Assembly (NCBI GenBank): GCA_021807125.1
Contig: JAKAPK010000001.1
Coordinates: forward strand, 54,354 to 118,353
DNA from: Nanobdellota archaeon
Lineage (GTDB): Archaea > Nanobdellota > Nanobdellia > Parvarchaeales > Parvarchaeaceae
Length of the DNA stretch: 64,000 nt
Reading direction: 5' to 3'
Numbering within the stretch: the stretch's first letter is position 1; every line of letters starts with the position of its first letter. Of the stretch, positions 22,166 to 64,000 are shown piece by piece. A program made the position numbers and the translations under genes. The notes beneath the pieces are model-generated. The model was not told where the DNA came from. It saw only the letters and a list, made by a program, of their open reading frames with translations, and ran no database searches.

Positions 22166-22681
22166 ATGAGAATACCCATGTTGATACTGATAGGATTGGC
22201 TGTATCAAGTATAGTGCTTATTTTAGCAGTCGGCCTCTTGTCTCCAAAGGGCAGCCAGGCCATATCCCCTTATTATTGGAATCAATCTTCGTCCGTTTCA
22301 GCCAGTCATAATTCTAATTACTCGTCCATAAATTATGTGTCTAATTGTACGTCACCGAATATTAATTTTTCTTATTATGGTGCTATATCAAACGTATCCG
22401 CCAAAACCGGATCCTCATCGATATCTGAGCTATATGTTACAAATAAAGGCAATGTTACTGAAAATGTAAGTATTTCTGCTACGCCAATCGGGACCGTGCC
22501 ATTTAAGGTTGAGGTGCCTGGGTCGGTCATGGACAACGTAAGTAGCACCGTTTATTTCCAATATGTGCTGCCTAACCTCCAGACAACAGGGCAATACCAG
22601 ATACAAATGCGCATAGTTGCCATACACGGAGACTGTGAGAAATCAGTTTCATTTCCTGTGTCGATAAACATAACAAGTTAA
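22166..22681 (+). CDS. Secreted or anchored Ser/Asn-rich protein with many N-x-S/T sequons
   Basis: 171 aa. N-terminal hydrophobic segment MLILIGLAVSSIVLILAVGLL. About ten sequons (NQS, NYS, NCT, NFS, NVS, NVT, NIT). The beta-rich C-terminal half resembles CARDB/DUF11-type domains. Confidence 0.55.
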   Translation: MRIPMLILIGLAVSSIVLILAVGLLSPKGSQAISPYYWNQSSSVSASHNSNYSSINYVSNCTSPNINFSYYGAISNVSAKTGSSSISELYVTNKGNVTENVSISATPIGTVPFKVEVPGSVMDNVSSTVYFQYVLPNLQTTGQYQIQMRIVAIHGDCEKSVSFPVSINITS

Positions 22682-25599: not shown

Positions 25600-26664
25600 T
25601 TATTGCTGTTTAATGCTTGAATGAATTAGTTCTTTGAATTTCTCTATAAATCTATCCTTATCTTCTGCCCTTATAGTACAACCTGCTGCGGCATCGTGTC
25701 CGCCGCCTTCTCCCTCCATCGTCTGGAAGATTTGTCGGAAAATAGACGGAAGTTTTATTCTTTTGTCGTTAGTGCGCATGTTTAATCTTATGCTGTCACC
25801 GTGTATCTTTCGTATGAACACTATCACCTTATCATAATACTTTTGAGTATGACTGAGCGCCGTTGCAACAGAAGTCGAATACCTGCTTTTCTGTCCGCCA
25901 ATTTCGAAGAAATATATCAACTGATCTGAAGTTTCCGCTTCTTTTTCAAATTTTTCAGTTATTTCTTTGAAATGTCTGGCTATCTCTAGGCGCACTTTTT
26001 TTAGTTTTGGGTTGTTTATAAGTTCATCAACGGAATTGGCTATTAACAAATTTTCAAGAGCCTCTTCTAGGCCGCTTCTTCCGCCGTGTATCTGCATAGC
26101 GGTTATCGTTGAACTAGCACATCCAAAATCGTTGTCGTAGAGGAATACGTCATTCTTCAGTTTAACGTCGTATCTTTTTGCGGCCTCTTTTATGAATTCC
26201 GGGTTTTCTCTTCCACCTGAATCGCTGACTATGCCCACTGCAGCTATCCACATGGTGTCGTCACAGTACTCCCTCAATAGCTCGTATACAAGTAACGAAC
26301 AAGGTGTATACTTCTGGTCACTCCACATTTTAGGGTTTATGTAGAGTACGTTGCCGGGTTTAATAAGTTCATGGTGGTCAACTATACACAGATTGAATTT
26401 TTTAAAAAGCCGCAGATCGTCCTCCTTGACGAACATATCGCATATTATTATGTTATTATTGAATTCCGACAGATCCATGTTCTCAAAGTCTTCATAGTTA
26501 GTAGGTCGATAAGCGTATACGCTTTTTCCCATCGCGTTTATTGCTTTAGAAAGTATGGTAGCTGATGTTACCCCGTCACCATCAGTATGATAAAATATCG
26601 AGAAAGAGTCACCGGATTTTAGAAAGTCTATGAACTTGCTTCTTTGCTCGTCAAAATTAGCCAT
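25600..26664 (-). CDS. DHH/DHHA1 family phosphoesterase (RecJ/NrnA-like), copy 1
   Basis: 354 aa. FYHTDGDGVTSATIL (DHH motifs I/II), CIVDHH (motif III), GGGHDAAAG (DHHA1). Confidence 0.8.
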   Translation of the reverse strand: MANFDEQRSKFIDFLKSGDSFSIFYHTDGDGVTSATILSKAINAMGKSVYAYRPTNYEDFENMDLSEFNNNIIICDMFVKEDDLRLFKKFNLCIVDHHELIKPGNVLYINPKMWSDQKYTPCSLLVYELLREYCDDTMWIAAVGIVSDSGGRENPEFIKEAAKRYDVKLKNDVFLYDNDFGCASSTITAMQIHGGRSGLEEALENLLIANSVDELINNPKLKKVRLEIARHFKEITEKFEKEAETSDQLIYFFEIGGQKSRYSTSVATALSHTQKYYDKVIVFIRKIHGDSIRLNMRTNDKRIKLPSIFRQIFQTMEGEGGGHDAAAGCTIRAEDKDRFIEKFKELIHSSIKQQ

Positions 26665-53706: not shown

Positions 53707-55422
53707 ATGAGATCTCCGATATGCGCGTTCTTGGGGCACGTCGACGCGGGAAAGACGTCGATAATGGACGCCATAAGAAACACAGCCTTTGCATATAAAG
53801 AAACCGGCGGGCTTACGCAAAACATAGGTATAACTGAGGTCCCTACAGATAGGATAAAGAAGATATGCGTCGAACTTCTGAAGAAACTTAACATTGCGAT
53901 AAAGGTGGACAGCGTAATATTCATTGACTCGCCCGGACACGAAGCTTTTGTTACCTTACGGGAACGTGGTGCGTCAATAGCGGATATAGCAATACTTGTA
54001 ATCGATGTAACAGAAGGGGTACAAAGACAGACTATAGAATCGATAGACATCTTAAAGTCCTATAAAACCCCTTTCATAGTTGCATTGACAAAGATAGACC
54101 GCGTTGACGGTTATATAGATAGAAAAGACATTTCGTTCATAGACTTCATGTCAAAACAAAACAGAAAATACTCAGAAAACCTCGATGCGGCCATATATAA
54201 GATGGCCGGAGAATTATCAAATTATGGTTTTCAGGCAGAAAGATATGATCGCGTCATAGATTTCACCAAACAGATATCGATAGTCCCAGTGTGTGCCGTG
54301 AACAATATTGGCATACAGGATCTTATTGTCATGCTGATAGGTCTTAGTCAGAGATACATAGACTTGAATAAACCCGCAGGCGACGAGGCAGCAATACTGG
54401 AAGAAAAGCAATTAAAAGGCATGGGTAAGGCGTACGATGCGATAGTGTATTCCGGCAGAATAAGCGTAGGGGACAAGGTAGTGATACAGAAAAAAGACAT
54501 GATATCAGAAACAAAAGTGAAGGCGATGTTCAAACTTGTTCCGATGGAGGAAAGCCGCGAGAATTTCGGGACGTATGAGAGTATAAAATCAGCAAGCGCC
54601 GCCACTCCGATAAGGCTTATACTACAGGACTCCGAAGTCTTGATAGGGACTTCAATATCTGTATTCCATAACGAGCAGGAAAAGAACAGGATAATCGGAG
54701 CCCTAGAAGGAGTAACAAAAGGTTACAATGATGAAAAAGCCAAGGGGATAGTCATTTGTGCGGATTCGATAGGCAGTATAGACGCGATAAAGAAGATAGG
54801 AGGAGCAAATTCCATACAGATAGGCATGACGAGGCTAGGCGAACCGACAAAACGTGAGATAACAACGGCCAAACTAAATGAGAAGGTAATTTTGTGTTTT
54901 AATGTGCCTATCAGCAAGCAGATAGAGGAGCTCTCAGCCATCGAAGGAGTAACGATAATAAGCAGCAACTCGATATACACAATATTCGAGAAGTATAACG
55001 AATTCAAATCTGCATTCAACAAGGAAGTCATTAACGACAAGACATCGGATATGACACTGCCCGCCGAGTTTGTGTTCATAAAGAGCAAGGTTTTCAGGCG
55101 GTCAAATCCATGCGTCATAGGCGTTGAGGTTCTTGCCGGCGAGATAAGGCCAGGCTATAGGGTAATAAATCATAAAGGCGCAAATTTGGGCAGAATACAG
55201 GAGATACAGGACGACAAAAAGAAATTGGATTCTGCAGTAAAGGGACAAAAGGTTGCGGTTAGCATAGACGATGCCGTGTATGACAGGAACCTATTTGATG
55301 GAGAGGTTCTTTATACAGACGTAAGCCTGCCAGACATAATTAAATTCGTAGACGTGAAGGGGATGTTAAGCGATGACTATAACGATGCGCTGCAAAAGAT
55401 ACAAAAAATAAAGCGTATTTAA
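53707..55422 (+). CDS. infB: Translation initiation factor aIF5B (IF2 family GTPase)
   Basis: 571 aa. G1 GHVDAGKT, G3 DSPGHEAF, G4 TKIDR, followed by beta-barrel and C-terminal domains. Confidence 0.9.
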   Translation: MRSPICAFLGHVDAGKTSIMDAIRNTAFAYKETGGLTQNIGITEVPTDRIKKICVELLKKLNIAIKVDSVIFIDSPGHEAFVTLRERGASIADIAILVIDVTEGVQRQTIESIDILKSYKTPFIVALTKIDRVDGYIDRKDISFIDFMSKQNRKYSENLDAAIYKMAGELSNYGFQAERYDRVIDFTKQISIVPVCAVNNIGIQDLIVMLIGLSQRYIDLNKPAGDEAAILEEKQLKGMGKAYDAIVYSGRISVGDKVVIQKKDMISETKVKAMFKLVPMEESRENFGTYESIKSASAATPIRLILQDSEVLIGTSISVFHNEQEKNRIIGALEGVTKGYNDEKAKGIVICADSIGSIDAIKKIGGANSIQIGMTRLGEPTKREITTAKLNEKVILCFNVPISKQIEELSAIEGVTIISSNSIYTIFEKYNEFKSAFNKEVINDKTSDMTLPAEFVFIKSKVFRRSNPCVIGVEVLAGEIRPGYRVINHKGANLGRIQEIQDDKKKLDSAVKGQKVAVSIDDAVYDRNLFDGEVLYTDVSLPDIIKFVDVKGMLSDDYNDALQKIQKIKRI

Positions 55423-56240
55423 GGCCAATTCTTCAGCGCCTTTTCATAAAGTTGCATGTTGTCGCAAGGCAGCCATTTCCCGCTGCACAGAAAACCGTTC
55501 AATTTGCCTTTTGTCGCAAGTTTCTCGAACAAACCTTCCATTGAAGATTTTCCTTCAGGTATAAGCGACACTATCAGAGGATTTAAAATGTAGATACCTG
55601 CGTTTATAAGATGGGTGCTCTGCATTCCAGTCGGTTTTTCCACGAATTTCGTTATTTTGTTTCCTTCCATCTCAACAGCACCGAACTGTGAAACGTTGTC
55701 TGTAGTAGTGAGCGCTATCGTTGCAAGGGACCTGTTCTTTTTGTGGAATTCGTACATCTTGTCTAGGTCGAAATCAAAAAGATCGTCTCCGTTTAGCATG
55801 AAAAAATCGTCATTGAATAGATTTGATGAAAGTCTAAGCGGACCGGCAGTACCAAGTGGAACCTTCTCTTCAAGGTATTTTATAGAAACACCAAATTTCG
55901 CCCCGTCTCCGAAGTAATCTCTTACCTTTTCGCCAAGATAGCCAACAGATATGACTATATCAGAAACCCCTGCTTCCTTGAGTTTATTTATCGCATACTC
56001 CATTATCGGTTTTCCTTTTATAGGCACCATCGGTTTTGGAAGTTCGTATGTGAGCGGCCGCAGCCTTATACCTTGCCCCCCAGCGAGTATGAACGCTTTC
56101 TTGATGCTTTTAGGAGAAAAACGCTCCTTCAATATCCTTTCTATCGCATTAGATCTGTTTAGTATATTTTCTCCATCGACTATCGAATCTAGCTCTTTAA
56201 GAATCTGTGGATTTAAACTTATGGTTATACGGGTTTTCAT
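55419..56240 (-). CDS. Ribbon-helix-helix domain fused to a sugar-1-phosphate nucleotidyltransferase
   Basis: 273 aa. Residues 1-40, MKTRITISLNPQILKELDSIVDGENILNRSNAIERILKERF, fit an RHH (CopG/Arc) pattern. They are followed by ILAGGQGIRLRPLTYELPKPMVPI (GxGxRL NTP-transferase signature). Confidence 0.75.
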   Translation of the reverse strand: MKTRITISLNPQILKELDSIVDGENILNRSNAIERILKERFSPKSIKKAFILAGGQGIRLRPLTYELPKPMVPIKGKPIMEYAINKLKEAGVSDIVISVGYLGEKVRDYFGDGAKFGVSIKYLEEKVPLGTAGPLRLSSNLFNDDFFMLNGDDLFDFDLDKMYEFHKKNRSLATIALTTTDNVSQFGAVEMEGNKITKFVEKPTGMQSTHLINAGIYILNPLIVSLIPEGKSSMEGLFEKLATKGKLNGFLCSGKWLPCDNMQLYEKALKNWP

Positions 56241-56261: not shown

Positions 56262-57419
56262 CTATTTATTACTTTTAGTTTTTGAAACCAGTCTTTCTAC
56301 AAGCGCGTCAAATCCCTTTATGAACCTCTTCTCGTCGTATTTTTCGGATTTTATAGCGCCTTTAACAAGTTTTGAATAGATTTTCTTTTCCGTTATCTTT
56401 ATCATTGCATAAGCCAGAGACTCTTCGTCTGCATCTATGACCACCCCATTACGTCCATTCTCAACGAATTCCTTCGGCCCGCCTTCATTAACGCATATCA
56501 CCGGTTTTCCGTACGCTAAAGATTCGAGAGGCACTAAGCCAGTATCCTCATTCATCGCAAGAAACAAAGTAGCGTAACACCTCCTGTATAGCCGTGATAT
56601 GCCTTCGTTCGAAAGATCCGTTTTTATTTCTATTGAAGGATTTCCTCCAGCGGCCTTTTTTACTTCTTCCAGATATTTTTGATCCTCAACGAAACCGCCG
56701 ACTATGAGTCTGAAGCCTTTTTTGTCCAGTCCGGATCTAAGGAAACCCTTTACAGCCAACACTTGCCTCTTATATCTTGTGAACCTGCTAGCGTAAAAGA
56801 AATATTTGTCGTGTACGCGGCTAGGTCCTATTCCGTTATATTGTATGCTTGGAAGTATACTAAATATTCTATTCGATTGCATTAGACCGTACGATTCTAT
56901 GCGTCTTCTAACTTCGTTGCTGTAAACAAATGAGTAGTCTATTTTTTTCCACGCGCCTCTCTCTAAAAGCCGATAAATAGGGATTATTAGAGGAAGTAGC
57001 ATCCGGTACTTTATGTTACTAGCTCTGTAATAGTCATACATGGAGTGGGCTATCCTAAGAGGGGTGTGAGTTATCGCGATCACAGGTACTTTAGGACTGT
57101 TTCGGTACACTATTAACTCCGCTAAGCCACCAGTTGAGATTATAAACAAATCATAATCTTTCAAAGGGATTTTTGTCGTGAGCATGTTATAAAACAACTT
57201 GAAACCTCTCATAAGCATCGAGCCGCTAGAACTTCCATTGAGTTCCTTTACGTTGAATTTCTTGAACTCTTTGAAGGTATTCTCTTTGTTATAAGTGAAA
57301 GTGTAAATGTCTATCTTGTGCCTGCTGTTCTTCAGGATGCTCAACATGGCACGCTCCACTCCGCCCTTGCTTTTTATCCACGGTACAAAGACAGCGATCT
57401 TCAATCGTTTTTTTATCAT
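56262..57419 (-). CDS. Glycosyltransferase, GT4 (GT-B fold)
   Basis: 385 aa. C-terminal EDTGLVPLESLAYGKPVICVNEGGPKEFV (E-x7-E region). Confidence 0.8.
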   Translation of the reverse strand: MIKKRLKIAVFVPWIKSKGGVERAMLSILKNSRHKIDIYTFTYNKENTFKEFKKFNVKELNGSSSGSMLMRGFKLFYNMLTTKIPLKDYDLFIISTGGLAELIVYRNSPKVPVIAITHTPLRIAHSMYDYYRASNIKYRMLLPLIIPIYRLLERGAWKKIDYSFVYSNEVRRRIESYGLMQSNRIFSILPSIQYNGIGPSRVHDKYFFYASRFTRYKRQVLAVKGFLRSGLDKKGFRLIVGGFVEDQKYLEEVKKAAGGNPSIEIKTDLSNEGISRLYRRCYATLFLAMNEDTGLVPLESLAYGKPVICVNEGGPKEFVENGRNGVVIDADEESLAYAMIKITEKKIYSKLVKGAIKSEKYDEKRFIKGFDALVERLVSKTKSNK

Positions 57420-57706: not shown

Positions 57707-60118
57707 CTACGACACAGTCTGCCAATAAGTTACATTTCTGACCAGGGTGTTATTCGTAAAGGCAGTGATCTTATATGTGCCAGCCGATAGGGTGGAAGTA
57801 TACATTGTTTTATTAATCGATAGGCTCTTTACGACTAGTCCATTCAAAGTTATCCCCACATAGCCATAAGGAAGAGTAGCAGTGAAGTTTGAGGCCACGC
57901 CGCCTGCTATGGAACTGTTTCCGTCCAGCACGCCGTTCAAATATAGGTAAGTCTTTCCCACTCGCCCTGAGGGCATTACGCCGTTAGGGGGGAAATCCCG
58001 TATCCTTGCCCATTTTAATGTCATCGCAAAGCCTCTCGTGCCGCCGGTATTTGTGAATTCCACGTAATTGTCAGCGGTAGCCGGCGCCTGCGCTTCTGAC
58101 TGGAGAGCATATTCCTTCGACATATTTGAATAGTTCAGAGAGTATACCGCATTTTTCCCATTGTTTGAAACAGTGAATAGATCTGGCGTATTATAAGCTA
58201 CATTGTAGTGGGTAGATGTAACGGAAGATCCGGAAGTAGTGTACCCCCATGAATAATTAGAGGTATACTGTGAAAGCCATCCATTTGCAGCATAATTTGC
58301 GCTGCTAGTCGGGTTTGAAGAATAATAAAGTCCATTGACCGTATAAGATCGTTTTGCAGCTTCGGTAAAGTTGCCGAGCCAGTCAAGCGTAGTGTTAGCC
58401 CCGAAATAAGAATTTGAATCAATGAACTCATTAACACTCGTCGATGCGGGAAGGTACACCCCGTGGTTTATGGTGACACTGGCACTTGTCCAGCCACTCG
58501 GCGCAGAGGGACCAGTAAAATTGCTGTATAATAGGTCAAAAACACTAGCGCCATCGTCATATTCGCCATAAATGGGCGATAACAGAGCAGATTCACCAGT
58601 CGTTAGTTTGTTGAAATCGTTCAAATTTGGATTCTGTATGACCATGAAGACGGTCTTTGTACTTAAAGCCGGTATCGTACCCACTTTCAGCCAGTATAAA
58701 CTGCTTTTAGATGCATTAGAGCCACCGTGCTCCAGCCACGAATCGACTACCGAGCCGTTCGGCCACATGAAATAAACGTTTGTGAGGCTCTTACTCTCTG
58801 CGTAACCGTATGCGGACGAGTTTATTGTCACATTCTGCTGAAAATCGGACAGAGTGGGAACATTTTGCGCGTTAGCAAAAGTTATTGGCAGCATCGGATT
58901 CCATATATGCAGAACTCTCGCTATAGAAGAAGGCGTATAATTCTGGTTGCCGTTTGTAGACAGATTGTAAAGATACGAACCCATATAAGTTTTGCTAGCT
59001 GTTCCCGAAAGTATGTTTTTATATATCAATGAGTTATTTATCGACATGTTTGCAAAGAGCTGGTTATTTACCGTCGTTATGCTGAACGTAGTCGTCCTAA
59101 GTACTCTGTTGAAAGTCGTGTTTTGACTTTGGGGAAGCGTCAAAGTCAGTATAGGGACAGCTTTATCTATTGTCTCCCAAAAAGTGATGTTGTTCACACC
59201 GCTGAGGTTGCTGAAAGCGGTGACTTTATACGTGCCGGCTGCCCGGAGTACCACATTTGTACTATAATTCTTTGCGAGTGGTGCGACAAGTACACCATTT
59301 ACGTAAATACCGACATATATTTTTATAGTGGAAGCGGTGAAGTTTGCATCCGTCCCGTATACTATGGAATTGTTAACGTCTTCAATACTGTTTAAAAACA
59401 GATTTAGCAGCGGCTTCTTTCCAGGTATACAGCTTGGAGATACAATATTGTACCCAGAAGGTACAATGTCTATCAGGTACGCATTGCTAAAGGAATTCAG
59501 TGTGATGTTGCCGTTAACGGTTCCGGTTGCGCCAGTGCTGAAGAGATAGCTCTGCATCTGTTGTCCAGACGTAGAGAGAACAGTAAGATTGAATTGCACG
59601 TTTGTAAGCACAGAGCCCGAATAATTGTAGAAACTGACTATGTACTGCATCTTGGAATTGTTGTATGTCTTGTATGAGTAATTTATGAATGATATGGGCG
59701 CGTTAACACCTATTTGTACTGCAGACGAGCCGTTGAACACAACGGTTTTAGCGTAAGCTGTGTATACACCAGTAGTAGTCGGTAAAAGCCCTTCAAGATA
59801 GACATTAGCATAACCAACGGCGCTGTGCGAAGATTCGCTTATTGTTATGGAATTCTGGCAGAACAGGCTGCCGCTAAGGTCAAGACTGCCAAATTGAAGG
59901 GGAAATGTCGAGATAGAACCTACTCCCTGGGATGAAACGTAGTTTGCCTCGGATACTATTGTATTAACGATGTTATTCGCTAAATTAGAGGCTGTGTTAT
60001 TATTTATCGCGGATGAATATGCAAAAAGATAATACATAAACGCCGCAATCACAGCCAAGCCTATACCTATGACTATCATGTATTCGGTATAAGTCTGCGA
60101 CTTTCTGCTTTTTCGCAT
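57707..60118 (-). CDS. Large surface protein with a class III (type IV pilin-like) signal peptide, a DUF2341-like domain and a duplicated C-terminal-type module
   Basis: 803 aa. N-terminus MRKSRKS/QTYTEYMIVIGIGLAVIAAF (Q+1, E+5, hydrophobic helix). Residues ~408-500 read PITFANAQNVPTLSDFQQNVTIN...LYWLKVGTIPALSTKTVFMVIQNPN. Asn/Ser/Thr-rich with ~35 N-x-S/T sequons by manual count. Confidence 0.7.
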   Translation of the reverse strand: MRKSRKSQTYTEYMIVIGIGLAVIAAFMYYLFAYSSAINNNTASNLANNIVNTIVSEANYVSSQGVGSISTFPLQFGSLDLSGSLFCQNSITISESSHSAVGYANVYLEGLLPTTTGVYTAYAKTVVFNGSSAVQIGVNAPISFINYSYKTYNNSKMQYIVSFYNYSGSVLTNVQFNLTVLSTSGQQMQSYLFSTGATGTVNGNITLNSFSNAYLIDIVPSGYNIVSPSCIPGKKPLLNLFLNSIEDVNNSIVYGTDANFTASTIKIYVGIYVNGVLVAPLAKNYSTNVVLRAAGTYKVTAFSNLSGVNNITFWETIDKAVPILTLTLPQSQNTTFNRVLRTTTFSITTVNNQLFANMSINNSLIYKNILSGTASKTYMGSYLYNLSTNGNQNYTPSSIARVLHIWNPMLPITFANAQNVPTLSDFQQNVTINSSAYGYAESKSLTNVYFMWPNGSVVDSWLEHGGSNASKSSLYWLKVGTIPALSTKTVFMVIQNPNLNDFNKLTTGESALLSPIYGEYDDGASVFDLLYSNFTGPSAPSGWTSASVTINHGVYLPASTSVNEFIDSNSYFGANTTLDWLGNFTEAAKRSYTVNGLYYSSNPTSSANYAANGWLSQYTSNYSWGYTTSGSSVTSTHYNVAYNTPDLFTVSNNGKNAVYSLNYSNMSKEYALQSEAQAPATADNYVEFTNTGGTRGFAMTLKWARIRDFPPNGVMPSGRVGKTYLYLNGVLDGNSSIAGGVASNFTATLPYGYVGITLNGLVVKSLSINKTMYTSTLSAGTYKITAFTNNTLVRNVTYWQTVS
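57710..57889 (-). repeat. Intragenic protein-level repeat, copy 2 (residues 744-803 of the 803-aa protein)
   Basis: NFTATLPYGYVGITLNGLVVKSLSINKTMYTSTLSAGTYKITAFTNNTLVRNVTYWQTVS aligns with residues 259-318. Confidence 0.6.
59165..59344 (-). repeat. Intragenic protein-level repeat, copy 1 (residues 259-318 of the 803-aa protein)
   Basis: NFTASTIKIYVGIYVNGVLVAPLAKNYSTNVVLRAAGTYKVTAFSNLSGVNNITFWETID. Shared pattern: NFTA...YVGI..NG..V.......T..L.AGTYK.TAF.N.....N.T.W.T. Confidence 0.6.
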
Positions 60119-60177
60119 ATAAGTGGTTGTTTTGCGCGCATTTAAGTTTTATAAGCCGTAACGCCCAAAATAAAAGT

Positions 60178-61224
60178 ATGACGTGGTACATATACACACA
60201 CAAAAAGGATTTGGACGGTATAACTTCTGCCGCCATTATGCAAAGATATCTCGATAAGAATAAGATAGCCGGACATATCGATTTTATAGATTATAGTCCG
60301 CTGGAAGAGTTAATGGAGATATTCGCAGGTGTCACAAAAATCCCAAAGGATTCTACATTGGTCTTAGTGGACTTCGGCGCGAACAAGACGATGGAAAGCA
60401 CCGCGCTAAAAGCATTTGAGGAGTTGCACGATAAAAACGTTAAAATATATTGGCTTGACCATCACACGTGGGACACAAAGTTTAAAGATGCTCTATCTAA
60501 ATACGCGGAGATAACGATTTCGGGCTCAAAAGAGCATTGCGGCGCCGAGTTGACTTACGCTAAGTTCATGCACGATGACAGTATTTCGGAGGGATTGGCA
60601 AAATTAGGAAGGGATGCGGACTTAGATATGTGGGAAAAACAGCCGCCGTTTCCAAATTTCGGTTTAACGGAATGCTTGGGAAACGTCATAACATACTATA
60701 ATTATATATCGAGGGGAGACATCAGAAAAAGACAAGAGCTTTTATTTTATATTGTAAAGAAGCTTTCAACGGCAAGTTTGGAGAGAATATTGACAAAGGA
60801 CTTTAAGAACCCTTTTTTGGACGAGCGACTGAAAGAGGACTATTTCGCATACAAGAGACTGGAGGAATCCGAACTCAGAAAATGCGTAGATTCCGCAGAA
60901 AACGTTAAATTTGGAAAGTATAAAGTAGTATTAGGTTTTGCAGAGCCGATAATTTCGACGACGATATCCGGAAGAAACTTAATATCACGTTACAATGCCG
61001 ATGTCGCGATAGTTCTAAGCGAATACGGCTCTTTTGGGATAAGGCGCAGTAATGAAAGAATAGAGGTAGACTGCGGCGCTATAGCGCGTCTTTTTAATGG
61101 TGGAGGACACGTGTTTGCGGCAGGCGGCGAACTAGGATTCAAGATAAAAAATAAAGAAGACCTTGAAAAAGCGAAAGAGCTTATAAAATCCAGATTAAAC
61201 CCGTTTTTTGCTGAGCATTCATAG
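60178..61224 (+). CDS. DHH/DHHA1 family phosphoesterase, copy 2
   Basis: Starts at MTWYIYTHKKDLDGITSAAIM (DHH motifs I/II), then WLDHH and GGGHVFAAG. The ORF-track start at 60127 adds 17 aa with no similarity. Confidence 0.75.
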   Translation: MTWYIYTHKKDLDGITSAAIMQRYLDKNKIAGHIDFIDYSPLEELMEIFAGVTKIPKDSTLVLVDFGANKTMESTALKAFEELHDKNVKIYWLDHHTWDTKFKDALSKYAEITISGSKEHCGAELTYAKFMHDDSISEGLAKLGRDADLDMWEKQPPFPNFGLTECLGNVITYYNYISRGDIRKRQELLFYIVKKLSTASLERILTKDFKNPFLDERLKEDYFAYKRLEESELRKCVDSAENVKFGKYKVVLGFAEPIISTTISGRNLISRYNADVAIVLSEYGSFGIRRSNERIEVDCGAIARLFNGGGHVFAAGGELGFKIKNKEDLEKAKELIKSRLNPFFAEHS

Positions 61225-61402: not shown

Positions 61403-61981
61403 TCACTTACCCAAGACATAGGCAACAATCGACTGCACAGCAGGATACAACTGCGCTATGTGAGTAAAGATAAGAAATGACATAATAAAGGTTATAGCGA
61501 TATCGAAAATCAGAGGCGCAAGATCTATTACAGGTATAAACCAAATCGCTTTTAGCAGTTTATCAGAGAAGTGCTTTACTAAGTGCAATATTATCAACAA
61601 CACAAGTATGTAGTAAGGTACTACGCCTATGGTTGATGACAACAAAGGAGACTTTATAAGAAAAAAGTTTGCGAACACGACAAATGCGTAAGAAATTATG
61701 CCCGGCAGACCTGTTGAAACCATAAGGAATGCAGTCAACAGAGCGGCAATTGATAAAGAGCCAATACTAGCAACGTATACCGTTATTGCCAATATAGCGA
61801 AAGCTGTAACGACTTGTATAAAGATTTTCTTCTGTACAAGGTTCGTCGCTAAAAGAATTATTAGATATCCCACTAACCATACGATGTTTATTCTTGTTAC
61901 AGCATAAATTACAAGTATGATAACGATGCTGGCTGCGTACAAATAATTCAAAAATTTCATATATAGACCGTTGCGATTCAA
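61403..61981 (-). CDS. Polytopic membrane protein, unknown function
   Basis: 192 aa, almost entirely hydrophobic helices. No GxGD or other catalytic motif seen. Confidence 0.55.
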   Translation of the reverse strand: MNRNGLYMKFLNYLYAASIVIILVIYAVTRINIVWLVGYLIILLATNLVQKKIFIQVVTAFAILAITVYVASIGSLSIAALLTAFLMVSTGLPGIISYAFVVFANFFLIKSPLLSSTIGVVPYYILVLLIILHLVKHFSDKLLKAIWFIPVIDLAPLIFDIAITFIMSFLIFTHIAQLYPAVQSIVAYVLGK

Positions 61982-63613: not shown

Positions 63614-64000
63614 ATGCAGAGATTCAAAGAGGGAGAAGTAACTTTCTTTGCAGAAGACAATCAAACCAAAAAGGCAGGAGTATTTTTTAATCCCTCAAGA
63701 AGATTCGATAGAGACTTAAACGTGTCATTGATCAAAGCATTAGGCGCTAAGGATATAGTGGGAATAGATCTTTTTGCCGCAAGCGGAGTTCGTGGACTCA
63801 GGTTAGCAAAGGAAACCGGGGCGTTCACTAGTATTATTATAAACGACATAAAGACCTCGCACACGATAAAGAAGAATATCACCCTGAATCATATAAAAAG
63901 AACAAAACTAATACAGACTTGCATAAACGCAGCAAATGTGAATTCTTTGGAAGATGGCTTTGATTATATAGACATAGATCCTTTTGGATCACCCGTGCGG
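63614..64000 (+). CDS. trm1: tRNA (guanine26-N2)-dimethyltransferase Trm1, 5' part (runs off the window)
   Basis: My translation gives MQRFKEGEVTFFAEDNQTKKAGVFFNPSRRFDRDLNVSLIKALGAKDIVGIDLFAASGVRGLRLAKE...IDIDPFGSP. FYNP-like, ASG.RG.R and DIDPFGSP are Trm1 hallmarks. The frame is open to the window end. Confidence 0.8.
   Translation, partial: MQRFKEGEVTFFAEDNQTKKAGVFFNPSRRFDRDLNVSLIKALGAKDIVGIDLFAASGVRGLRLAKETGAFTSIIINDIKTSHTIKKNITLNHIKRTKLIQTCINAANVNSLEDGFDYIDIDPFGSPVR

Follow-up and report, generated by a model that had tools for sequence, protein, structure and literature searches.

What is the 803-residue protein encoded on the minus strand at positions 57707..60118 of a 64,000-nucleotide stretch of DNA from a Nanobdellota archaeon of the family Parvarchaeaceae (GenBank assembly GCA_021807125.1, contig JAKAPK010000001.1; the whole stretch is referred to here as the window), and where on the cell would it act? 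The first-pass annotation, made from the letters alone, described it as a candidate surface or pilus-borne adhesin, and this stays the best reading, supported by the N-terminal signal, a lectin-type core and an enrichment in N-glycosylation sequons. We propose, with moderate confidence, that it is a modular pilin-like surface adhesin of this Parvarchaeota (DPANN) archaeon, a glycan-binding and N-glycosylated protein that would form part of a type IV pilus-like filament, as one of its minor subunits or at its tip. The proposal starts from the N-terminal part of the protein, which comprises the following features.

57707..60118, minus strand: whole coding sequence, 803 amino acids plus stop, with an ATG start and the open reading frame exactly as first annotated

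60098..60118, minus strand: residues 1-7, MRKSRKS, basic leader, predicted from the alignment and published criteria to be removed by prepilin peptidase between S7 and Q8

59423..60097, minus strand: residues 8-232, pilin-like module, defined from the family alignment, AlphaFold2 and PF04021 matches in relatives

The N-terminus reads MRKSRKS followed by QTYTEYMIVIGIGLAVIAAFMYYLFAY, in which K and S stand at -2 and -1 of the predicted cleavage site and Q and E at +1 and +5, and the sole strongly hydrophobic stretch in the 803 residues (residues 13-35; Kyte-Doolittle 2.2-2.4) is positioned after that site and not before it. In an alignment of 20 relatives Q8, Y13, G67, S84, C87, P113, G117, Y159, F163 and C230 are invariant, E12 is kept in at least 90% of the sequences (D in one), and the predicted cleavage site is preceded by one of G, A, S and T at -1 and in most sequences by K or R at -2; the family consensus is a basic leader that ends in (G/A/S) before the cleavage site and continues as Q-x-x-(T/L)-E-Y-(L/I/M)-I-(I/V)-I-G after it. 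The class III criteria that we applied are those of two reviews (PMC4371748; PMC3387779), according to which G, A or S at -1 is required in all prepilins, a charged residue at -2 is required for archaeal peptidases, and in the EppA subclass, once DUF361 and now Pfam Class_IIIsignal, Q at +1 and E at +5 are conserved. The 803-residue protein has the expected residue at every position to which the class III/EppA-type criteria refer. Class_IIIsignal (PF04021) matches the N-termini of eight of ten relatives and is the only recurring family there, with one match at 27.8 bits (gathering score 23.7), four at E=0.002-0.007 and the rest at E=0.1-0.2. Judged by motif, the N-terminus is a predicted class III (prepilin-type) signal with Q at +1 and E at +5, a type that EppA-like peptidases recognise; this had been claimed from the single sequence and is now borne out by the family-wide conservation of the motif and by the Class_IIIsignal matches in relatives.

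The region behind the signal is conserved together with it. When 1.8 billion cluster representatives were searched exhaustively, 1225 relatives of the protein were obtained; a word-indexed whole-protein search gave 7 only, and the alignment of the N-terminal module gave none in the indexed database, probably because of the word filter. One of the two groups of relatives matches residues ~3-235 and includes proteins of 547-1160 amino acids as well as stand-alone proteins of 228-237 amino acids; since the stand-alone members stop 1-3 residues past the second invariant cysteine (C230), residues 1-232 constitute an autonomous module. Serine, asparagine, threonine and tyrosine are abundant in the 803-residue protein and cysteine occurs twice only, as C87 and C230, which probably form a disulfide. 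AlphaFold2, given the alignment as input for residues 1-245, returned a model with a predicted local distance difference test score (pLDDT) of 88.2 and a predicted template modelling score of 0.78, in which a continuous helix (residues 5-64) is followed by 14 strands that form two beta-sandwich-like parts. A long N-terminal helix joined to beta domains, as modelled here, is the general "lollipop" plan of pilins and archaellins. When the module was aligned by hhalign with a neighbouring small prepilin-like protein, the signal and helix alone aligned, at 32% probability. Neither Pfam nor NCBIfam has a model for the family of residues 1-232, and the NCBIfam match of the module to PilV, at 16.8 bits, is far below the cut-off of 52.2. 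An archaellin identity was considered and rejected on the lack of any archaellin family match in Pfam or NCBIfam. The label "pilin-like" is supported by motif and predicted architecture, not by demonstrated homology.

The position of this module in related genomes bears on the size of the protein. A locus search with a five-sequence alignment gave five genome loci and two metagenome loci, and the relatives from species-representative genomes come from metagenome-assembled genomes (MAGs) that bear the label "Candidatus Parvarchaeota" or "Nanoarchaeota" and isolate names of acid-mine type. Neighbouring proteins on the contig of the window have NCBI names from Candidatus Parvarchaeota. In the window the order at locus 1 is TFB ... 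the 803-residue gene, then a GT1 glycosyltransferase gene, then an RHH/sugar-nucleotidyltransferase gene, with aIF5B on the opposite strand. The two neighbours are as follows.

56262-57419, minus strand: GT1-family glycosyltransferase (Pfam), downstream of the 803-residue gene and on the same strand

55419-56240, minus strand: RHH plus sugar-nucleotidyltransferase (Pfam), likewise downstream and on the same strand

Both are kept beside every locus-1 orthologue examined, in the same order in L006, L007, L008, L012, L013 and L016 (L numbers denote loci and P numbers proteins). At this position L006, L007, L008 and L012 carry the stand-alone module of 229-237 amino acids, L013 a fragment at a contig end, L019 a 568-residue version in inverted orientation and L016 a 1160-residue version with several cores. 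Because stand-alone, 568-residue and 1160-residue orthologues occupy the same locus, the comparison identifies the 803-residue protein as a pilin module with extra modules attached. A second locus, in which the gene lies between thymidylate kinase and pyruvate kinase, with ribosomal proteins beyond, was seen in L003, L004, L014, L015, L017, L018 and L024 and encodes paralogues of 583-1227 amino acids, some with an inserted Laminin_G_3 domain. One of these locus-2 paralogues, P0069 (583 amino acids), is present in the same two samples as the strain of the window, and therefore this organism probably has two genes with the pilin-like module.

The attached modules make up the remaining residues, 233-803, and their boundaries were taken from the coverage of 326 homologous stretches.

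59159..59422, minus strand: beta module A, residues 233-320, paralogue of module B, predicted all-beta with pLDDT 58-70

58904..59158, minus strand: beta-rich spacer module, residues 321-405, of a kind common to giant surface proteins (50-100 homologous stretches), pLDDT below 50

57953..58903, minus strand: conserved core, residues 406-722, with a DUF2341-like N-terminal part and a predicted concanavalin A-like jelly-roll

58616..58777, minus strand: sub-threshold DUF2341 (PF10102) stretch, residues 448-501, 17.0 bits, E=0.008

57710..57952, minus strand: beta module B, residues 723-803, C-terminal and without a membrane anchor, defined from the duplication, the model and the architecture of relatives

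The core, together with the beta modules, would make the protein an adhesin. Pfam gave nothing at E<=1 with the whole 803-residue sequence; with the segment of residues 408-543 alone PF10102 is the only match (E=0.008), its 17.0 bits falling below the gathering score of 23.4. The aligned stretch of relatives scores at or near that threshold (P0004 23.4, P0006 27.5, P0007 24.5, P0002 23.3 and P0005 20.3 bits), and the positional orthologue P0022 has a precomputed PF10102 match classed as "weak". AlphaFold2 is confident within the core for residues 406-495 (pLDDT 82-93) and 526-585 (pLDDT 74-91) only. Foldseek, run with the model of residues 226-803, gave 25 matches at E<=1e-3, essentially all of them to the concanavalin A-like superfamily or to multi-domain proteins that contain one such domain. 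The best match of the core is to GH16 endo-O-glycanases (E=1.8e-5, probability 1.0, target-normalised TM 0.45-0.50), and the others include GH16-like pseudo-glucanases, the L-type lectins Emp47p and VIP36, the receptor-binding (Hc) domains of botulinum toxin, MAM domains and the lectin domains of trans-sialidases. A profile search of the PDB with the core alignment gave nothing. Pfam Laminin_G_3/LamG was not matched by the 803-residue protein, either whole or as segment 408-543, and the PF13385 matches of the locus-2 paralogues P0056 and P0024 lie within an inserted domain that the 803-residue protein is without. At its C-terminal end the core carries the conserved motif W-x-R-x-R-x-(F/Y)-P-P-N-G-V-M-P. 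The Foldseek match supports the reading of the core as a DUF2341-like part followed by a lectin-type jelly-roll, in line with the first-pass annotation, in which residues ~408-500 were read as DUF2341-like, a domain that is usually followed by a LamG-type lectin fold.

Since GH16 endo-O-glycanases and GH16-like proteins head the list of Foldseek matches (E=1.8e-5 to 6e-4), the question arises whether the protein might instead be a secreted or surface glycoside hydrolase, with a GH16-like core that cuts glycans of the host or of the matrix. We consider this very improbable. Rv0315, which is among the GH16-like matches, has been described as a pseudo-glucanase, the lectins Emp47p and VIP36 and the botulinum toxin Hc domain match comparably well, and no glycoside hydrolase family was returned by Pfam or NCBIfam. 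The reading of the core as a GH16 enzyme was rejected on the absence of the catalytic E-x-D-x(x)-E motif from residues 406-722; given that absence, the core is more likely to bind than to catalyse.

The beta modules on either side of the core are related to each other. Residues 226-318 and 713-803 are 43% identical over 93 amino acids (pairwise E=1e-20), and hence the paralogy that had been noticed by eye is real, the proposed extent of about 60 amino acids (residues 259-318 and 744-803) being too short. In giant relatives such as P0014 a core-module-module unit is repeated, and modules A and B, both predicted all-beta, correspond to the modules of that unit. The usual plan of the family leads from the pilin-like module directly into the core, and the 803-residue protein differs from it by the insertion of module A and the spacer and by the addition of module B at its end.

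The protein may also be N-glycosylated. It contains 32 sequons (N-x-S/T, with x not P), where shuffled sequences of the same composition contain 19.2±3.7 and reach 32 or more in 17 of 20,000 cases (p ~0.001); the reversed motif S/T-x-N occurs 21 times. The density of 4.0 per 100 amino acids compares with 0.62 in the other 64 open reading frames of the window. The enrichment pointed out in the first-pass annotation therefore holds, with its count of roughly 35 corrected to 32. The constant neighbourhood bears on the same subject. Where the gene and the GT1 gene share a strand in relatives (L006, L007, L008, L012 and L016) the gap between them is -11 to +59 nucleotides, which suggests that they form an operon there; in the window the gap is 287 nucleotides. 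The conserved GT1 and sugar-nucleotidyltransferase neighbours suggest a dedicated glycosylation link.

The annotation had called an 800-residue protein with a pilin signal very atypical, and this is not supported. The core is present in 137 of the 154 top representatives and also in proteins of up to 4757 amino acids, with up to four copies in P0014 (1960 amino acids), the one multi-copy protein mapped. A class III-type signal stands at the start of 35 of these 137 core-bearing representatives, on two unrelated pilin modules: 17 start with the pilin-like module described here, and another 18 with a smaller class III module (consensus QSALEYMMTYGWAILII, ~150 amino acids) that leads straight into the DUF2341 core. 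Archaeal proteins of more than 1000 amino acids with class III signals have, moreover, been predicted since 2007, as cited in PMC4371748. The architecture of the 803-residue protein is thus neither rare nor exceptional. Since two carrier modules are fused to the same core, the fusion arose on at least two carriers and is frequent, and this distribution speaks for a connection in function between the DUF2341/concanavalin A-like core and display of the prepilin type.

Does the helix, then, take the protein into a filament, or does it do no more than hold it in the membrane? In the second case the protein, with its N-terminal helix cleaved or not, would be a membrane-anchored envelope glycoprotein, an S-layer-associated or bindosome-like lectin that is never part of a pilus, which we regard as possible although less probable than a place in a filament. 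Several results speak for such an anchor and, together with others, weigh against our proposal. Genes for an A24 prepilin peptidase, a FlaI/PilB ATPase and a FlaJ/TadC platform protein were not found in the ~95 kb that were read, which comprise the 64-kb window and ~31 kb of flanks (~10 kb on its left side and ~21 kb on its right), in agreement with the earlier observation that the window holds none; the gene stands among housekeeping genes, and no pilus machinery lies beside the family members examined elsewhere, in all neighbourhoods that were read. The Foldseek matches of the pilin-like module are generic tandem FN3/Ig domains only (E>=1.3e-3, TM<=0.37), with no solved pilin or archaellin among them, and the best match of the module in the PDB profile search, the N-terminal helix of an archaellin, is non-significant (E=0.34). 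The AlphaFold2 model of residues 226-803 is moderate overall (pLDDT 64). Of the Pfam families that the first-pass annotation had named for checking, DUF2341 was found in its sub-threshold form, and Class_IIIsignal (PF04021), like Laminin_G_3, is unmatched in the 803-residue protein itself. Related core domains are found too in proteins such as P0002, P0004 and P0005, which have an ordinary signal and are anchored in the membrane at the C-terminus, and sugar-binding proteins of Sulfolobus have class III signals and yet are not pilins (PMC4371748). A plain anchor, however, leaves unexplained why Q at +1, an acidic residue at +5, a small residue at -1 and a basic leader have been retained in 20 diverged members, and why a 60-residue helix is continuous with a beta domain; and archaea often have pilin genes that stand alone, away from the machinery (PMC4858521). 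The hydrophobicity profile of the 803-residue protein shows no C-terminal membrane anchor.

Other genes for prepilin-like proteins do occur in this region. On the contig of a near-identical strain that carries the gene there are, ~10 kb from it, at least seven small prepilin-like genes, which lie about 6-15 kb beyond the right end of the window.

L020 17287-20924 (= L021 7279-12678), minus strand in L020: same-strand cluster of prepilin-like genes, outside the window, beyond position 64000

The cluster includes five tiny proteins of 47-59 amino acids that start with M-x-(K/N)-(K/R)-G and continue immediately into a hydrophobic helix, a 143-residue protein (NKA before and ASTIE after the predicted site) and three cysteine-rich secreted proteins of 166, 328 and 518 amino acids. 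Just upstream of it, past the gene for ribosomal protein L15e, are genes for a MinD/ParA-type ATPase and for a 145-residue protein (MRKG before and QIAIEQLL after the site) which, from its sequence, is a prepilin of the textbook Q+1/E+5 kind. Conservation of the cluster extends to relatives (L016, L019 and L006), and its proteins have no Pfam matches; it may be the pilin gene set of the organism, in which case the members of ~50 amino acids would be pilins of unusual shortness. With prepilin-like proteins in such number, a prepilin peptidase is probably encoded in the genome. For Parvarchaeales MAGs, pilins have been reported in all, and flaHIJ-type genes have been reported with no number of MAGs given (PMC10134863). 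A conserved cytoplasmic protein of 570-594 amino acids without a Pfam match adjoins either the cluster of tiny genes or a Gins51-helicase pair (L020 13387-15147 and L001 2292-4052, with homologues in L006, L008, L012, L016 and L019).

If the protein does enter a filament, it could in principle be the major subunit of a lineage-specific one, in which each subunit would here be decorated by a 570-residue adhesin extension. The stand-alone form, at ~230 amino acids, is of archaellin-like size, the locus is fixed and lies 1 nucleotide from or overlaps the same-strand glycosyltransferase gene in relatives, in an operon-like manner, and the best solved-structure match, non-significant as it is, is to an archaellin helix. 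We nevertheless find this doubtful: positional orthologues that range from 229 to 1160 amino acids are hard to fit into one conserved filament lattice, the canonical prepilin-like genes nearby (143-145 amino acids) are better candidates for the major pilin, and Pfam and NCBIfam return no archaellin family for the protein.

We therefore return to a minor or tip subunit, for which the following hypothetical sequence of events can be put forward. The precursor would be inserted into the membrane via Sec, and a prepilin peptidase would cleave it after S7, so that Q8 becomes the first residue. The long helix would then, by its hydrophobic first half, retain the protein in the membrane until type IV pilus-like machinery places it in a filament; its bulk makes a place at the tip, or as another minor subunit, the most likely one. 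The lectin-like core and the beta modules would bind glycans or glycoproteins on a surface or on another cell, for instance that of the Thermoplasmatales host. N-glycans would be attached to the protein itself, a step to which the glycosyltransferase and sugar-nucleotidyltransferase encoded downstream may contribute.

The closest parallel to this scheme is found in bacteria. PilC of Streptococcus sanguinis has Ig-like and concanavalin A-like lectin modules, is bulky, is modelled at the pilus tip and binds glycans (PMC9934059); in PilC (and PilB) a class III signal and a pilin module are joined to the further modules by a short linker (PMC8179133, PMC9934059), and the stand-alone and extended orthologues described here follow the same "grafting" logic. 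A modular pilin in the sense of PMC8179133 has a pilin module that can occur alone and to whose C-terminus a functional module is joined through a short linker; the mark of such a pilin is found here too, in that the module exists alone and in extended members runs directly into the core or into beta modules. The two nevertheless differ in that the 803-residue protein is archaeal and has a Q+1/E+5 signal, whereas bacterial pilins have the IPR012902 N-methylation motif, and in that its pilin module is far larger (~225 amino acids, two beta-sandwiches, one conserved cysteine pair); no sequence similarity between it and PilC was detected. Archaea are nowhere mentioned in PMC8179133.

Among archaea, type IV pilus adhesins with DUF2341 or LamG domains have already been put forward for Methanococci and DPANN archaea. 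DUF2341 proteins of Epd-type pilus loci have been proposed as tip adhesins (PMC4858521), and one such gene, MMJJ_08210 of M. maripaludis, is required for pilus-dependent transformation (PMC10133366). These Epd-type (clade 1) proteins (arCOG03508 and others) resemble the 803-residue protein in being large secreted archaeal proteins with a DUF2341-type domain and a proposed role as pilus adhesins, and the pilins associated with the Epd-type loci share the Q+1/E+5 signal type and are cleaved by EppA (PMC4858521, PMC10133366). Their genes lie inside pilus loci, whereas the gene described here stands alone among housekeeping genes and its DUF2341 match is sub-threshold. LamG-like jelly-roll proteins are, according to PMC5498576, expanded in DPANN archaea, and some are linked there to type IV pilus loci in the ARMAN archaeon "Ca. 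Mancarchaeum" Mia14, like our organism an acid-mine DPANN symbiont; these proteins have a lectin-like fold and a proposed role in host contact. Mia14 belongs, however, to a different phylum, Micrarchaeota, and the part of PMC5498576 on which the comparison draws describes no explicit fusion to a pilin module. The Sulfolobus sugar-binding proteins are likewise large ligand-binding proteins with a prepilin-type signal, processed by PibD and non-pilin; they are substrate-binding proteins of ABC transporters without a pilin-like globular module, in contrast to the 803-residue protein, in which the signal is followed by a conserved module that occurs as a separate protein as well. Taken with these precedents, it is plausible from the sequence that the protein serves in cell attachment, as has been predicted before for others of its kind in archaea of this sort.

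The DNA around the gene is in keeping with the assigned start, and a further feature is listed here.

60147..60154, minus strand: TATA-like octamer TTATAAAA, 29-36 nucleotides upstream of the ATG, putative and read from the letters

As its position matches that of the TATA box of a nearly leaderless transcript, the octamer supports the ATG start codon; it is a candidate promoter and fits a near-leaderless archaeal mRNA. The GC content of the window is ~40%. A near-identical copy of the gene is present on contig ERZ27233560 k141_677403 (ENA assembly ERZ27233560) and differs from it at 8 codons; 4 of these changes are synonymous and 4 alter the residue. Between the gene in the window and L001 10001-12412 the strain variants are T316I, R695G, A738T and V763I, none of them in the pilin-like module; 3 of the 4 non-synonymous differences fall in the C-terminal 110 residues. 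Divergent from the gene, with ~60 nucleotides between the called starts, is one of two DHH/DHHA1 phosphoesterase paralogues of the window (60127-61224, plus strand; the other is at 25600-26664, minus strand). Between this DHH gene and a NUDIX gene, positions 61403-61981 (minus strand) encode a 192-residue protein with six predicted membrane helices, which has no Pfam match and no GxGD-type prepilin-peptidase motif; small multi-helix membrane proteins adjoin the pilin-like gene at the equivalent position in L006, L008, L009 and L012. Elsewhere in the window, the open reading frame at 22166-22681 (plus strand) encodes 171 amino acids with a hydrophobic N-terminal segment, 9 sequons (5.3 per 100 amino acids) and no Pfam match, and is probably another glycosylated surface protein.

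The essence of these results is that they document an example well and do not establish a new principle: the DUF2341 adhesins of Epd loci and the LamG predictions in Micrarchaeota precede them, and the advance is incremental. Three points are new, namely a carrier module family for which Pfam and NCBIfam have no model, positional orthologues in stand-alone and extended forms, and two fixed loci. More speculatively, and in our view improbably as a whole, they could be combined into an undescribed Parvarchaeota-type DPANN pilin family with two loci, in which the C-terminus of the module would be a dock for exchanged adhesin cassettes that decide the host at the pilus tip. DUF2341/concanavalin A-like cores and beta modules, which giant surface proteins have as well, would then be gained, lost and multiplied between lineages, giving proteins of 229, 568, 803 and 1160 amino acids at one locus, and the variable cassette would tip the pili that join ARMAN cells to Thermoplasmatales and so select the host; pili-like connections between these cells have been seen by microscopy (PMC5864196). 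The findings extend the idea of the modular pilin to archaea, and the protein becomes a candidate for host recognition and attachment in DPANN archaea, in which contact would be made by a pilin-type carrier whose lectin-like modules are exchangeable and whose gene occurs once or twice in a genome, at fixed loci.

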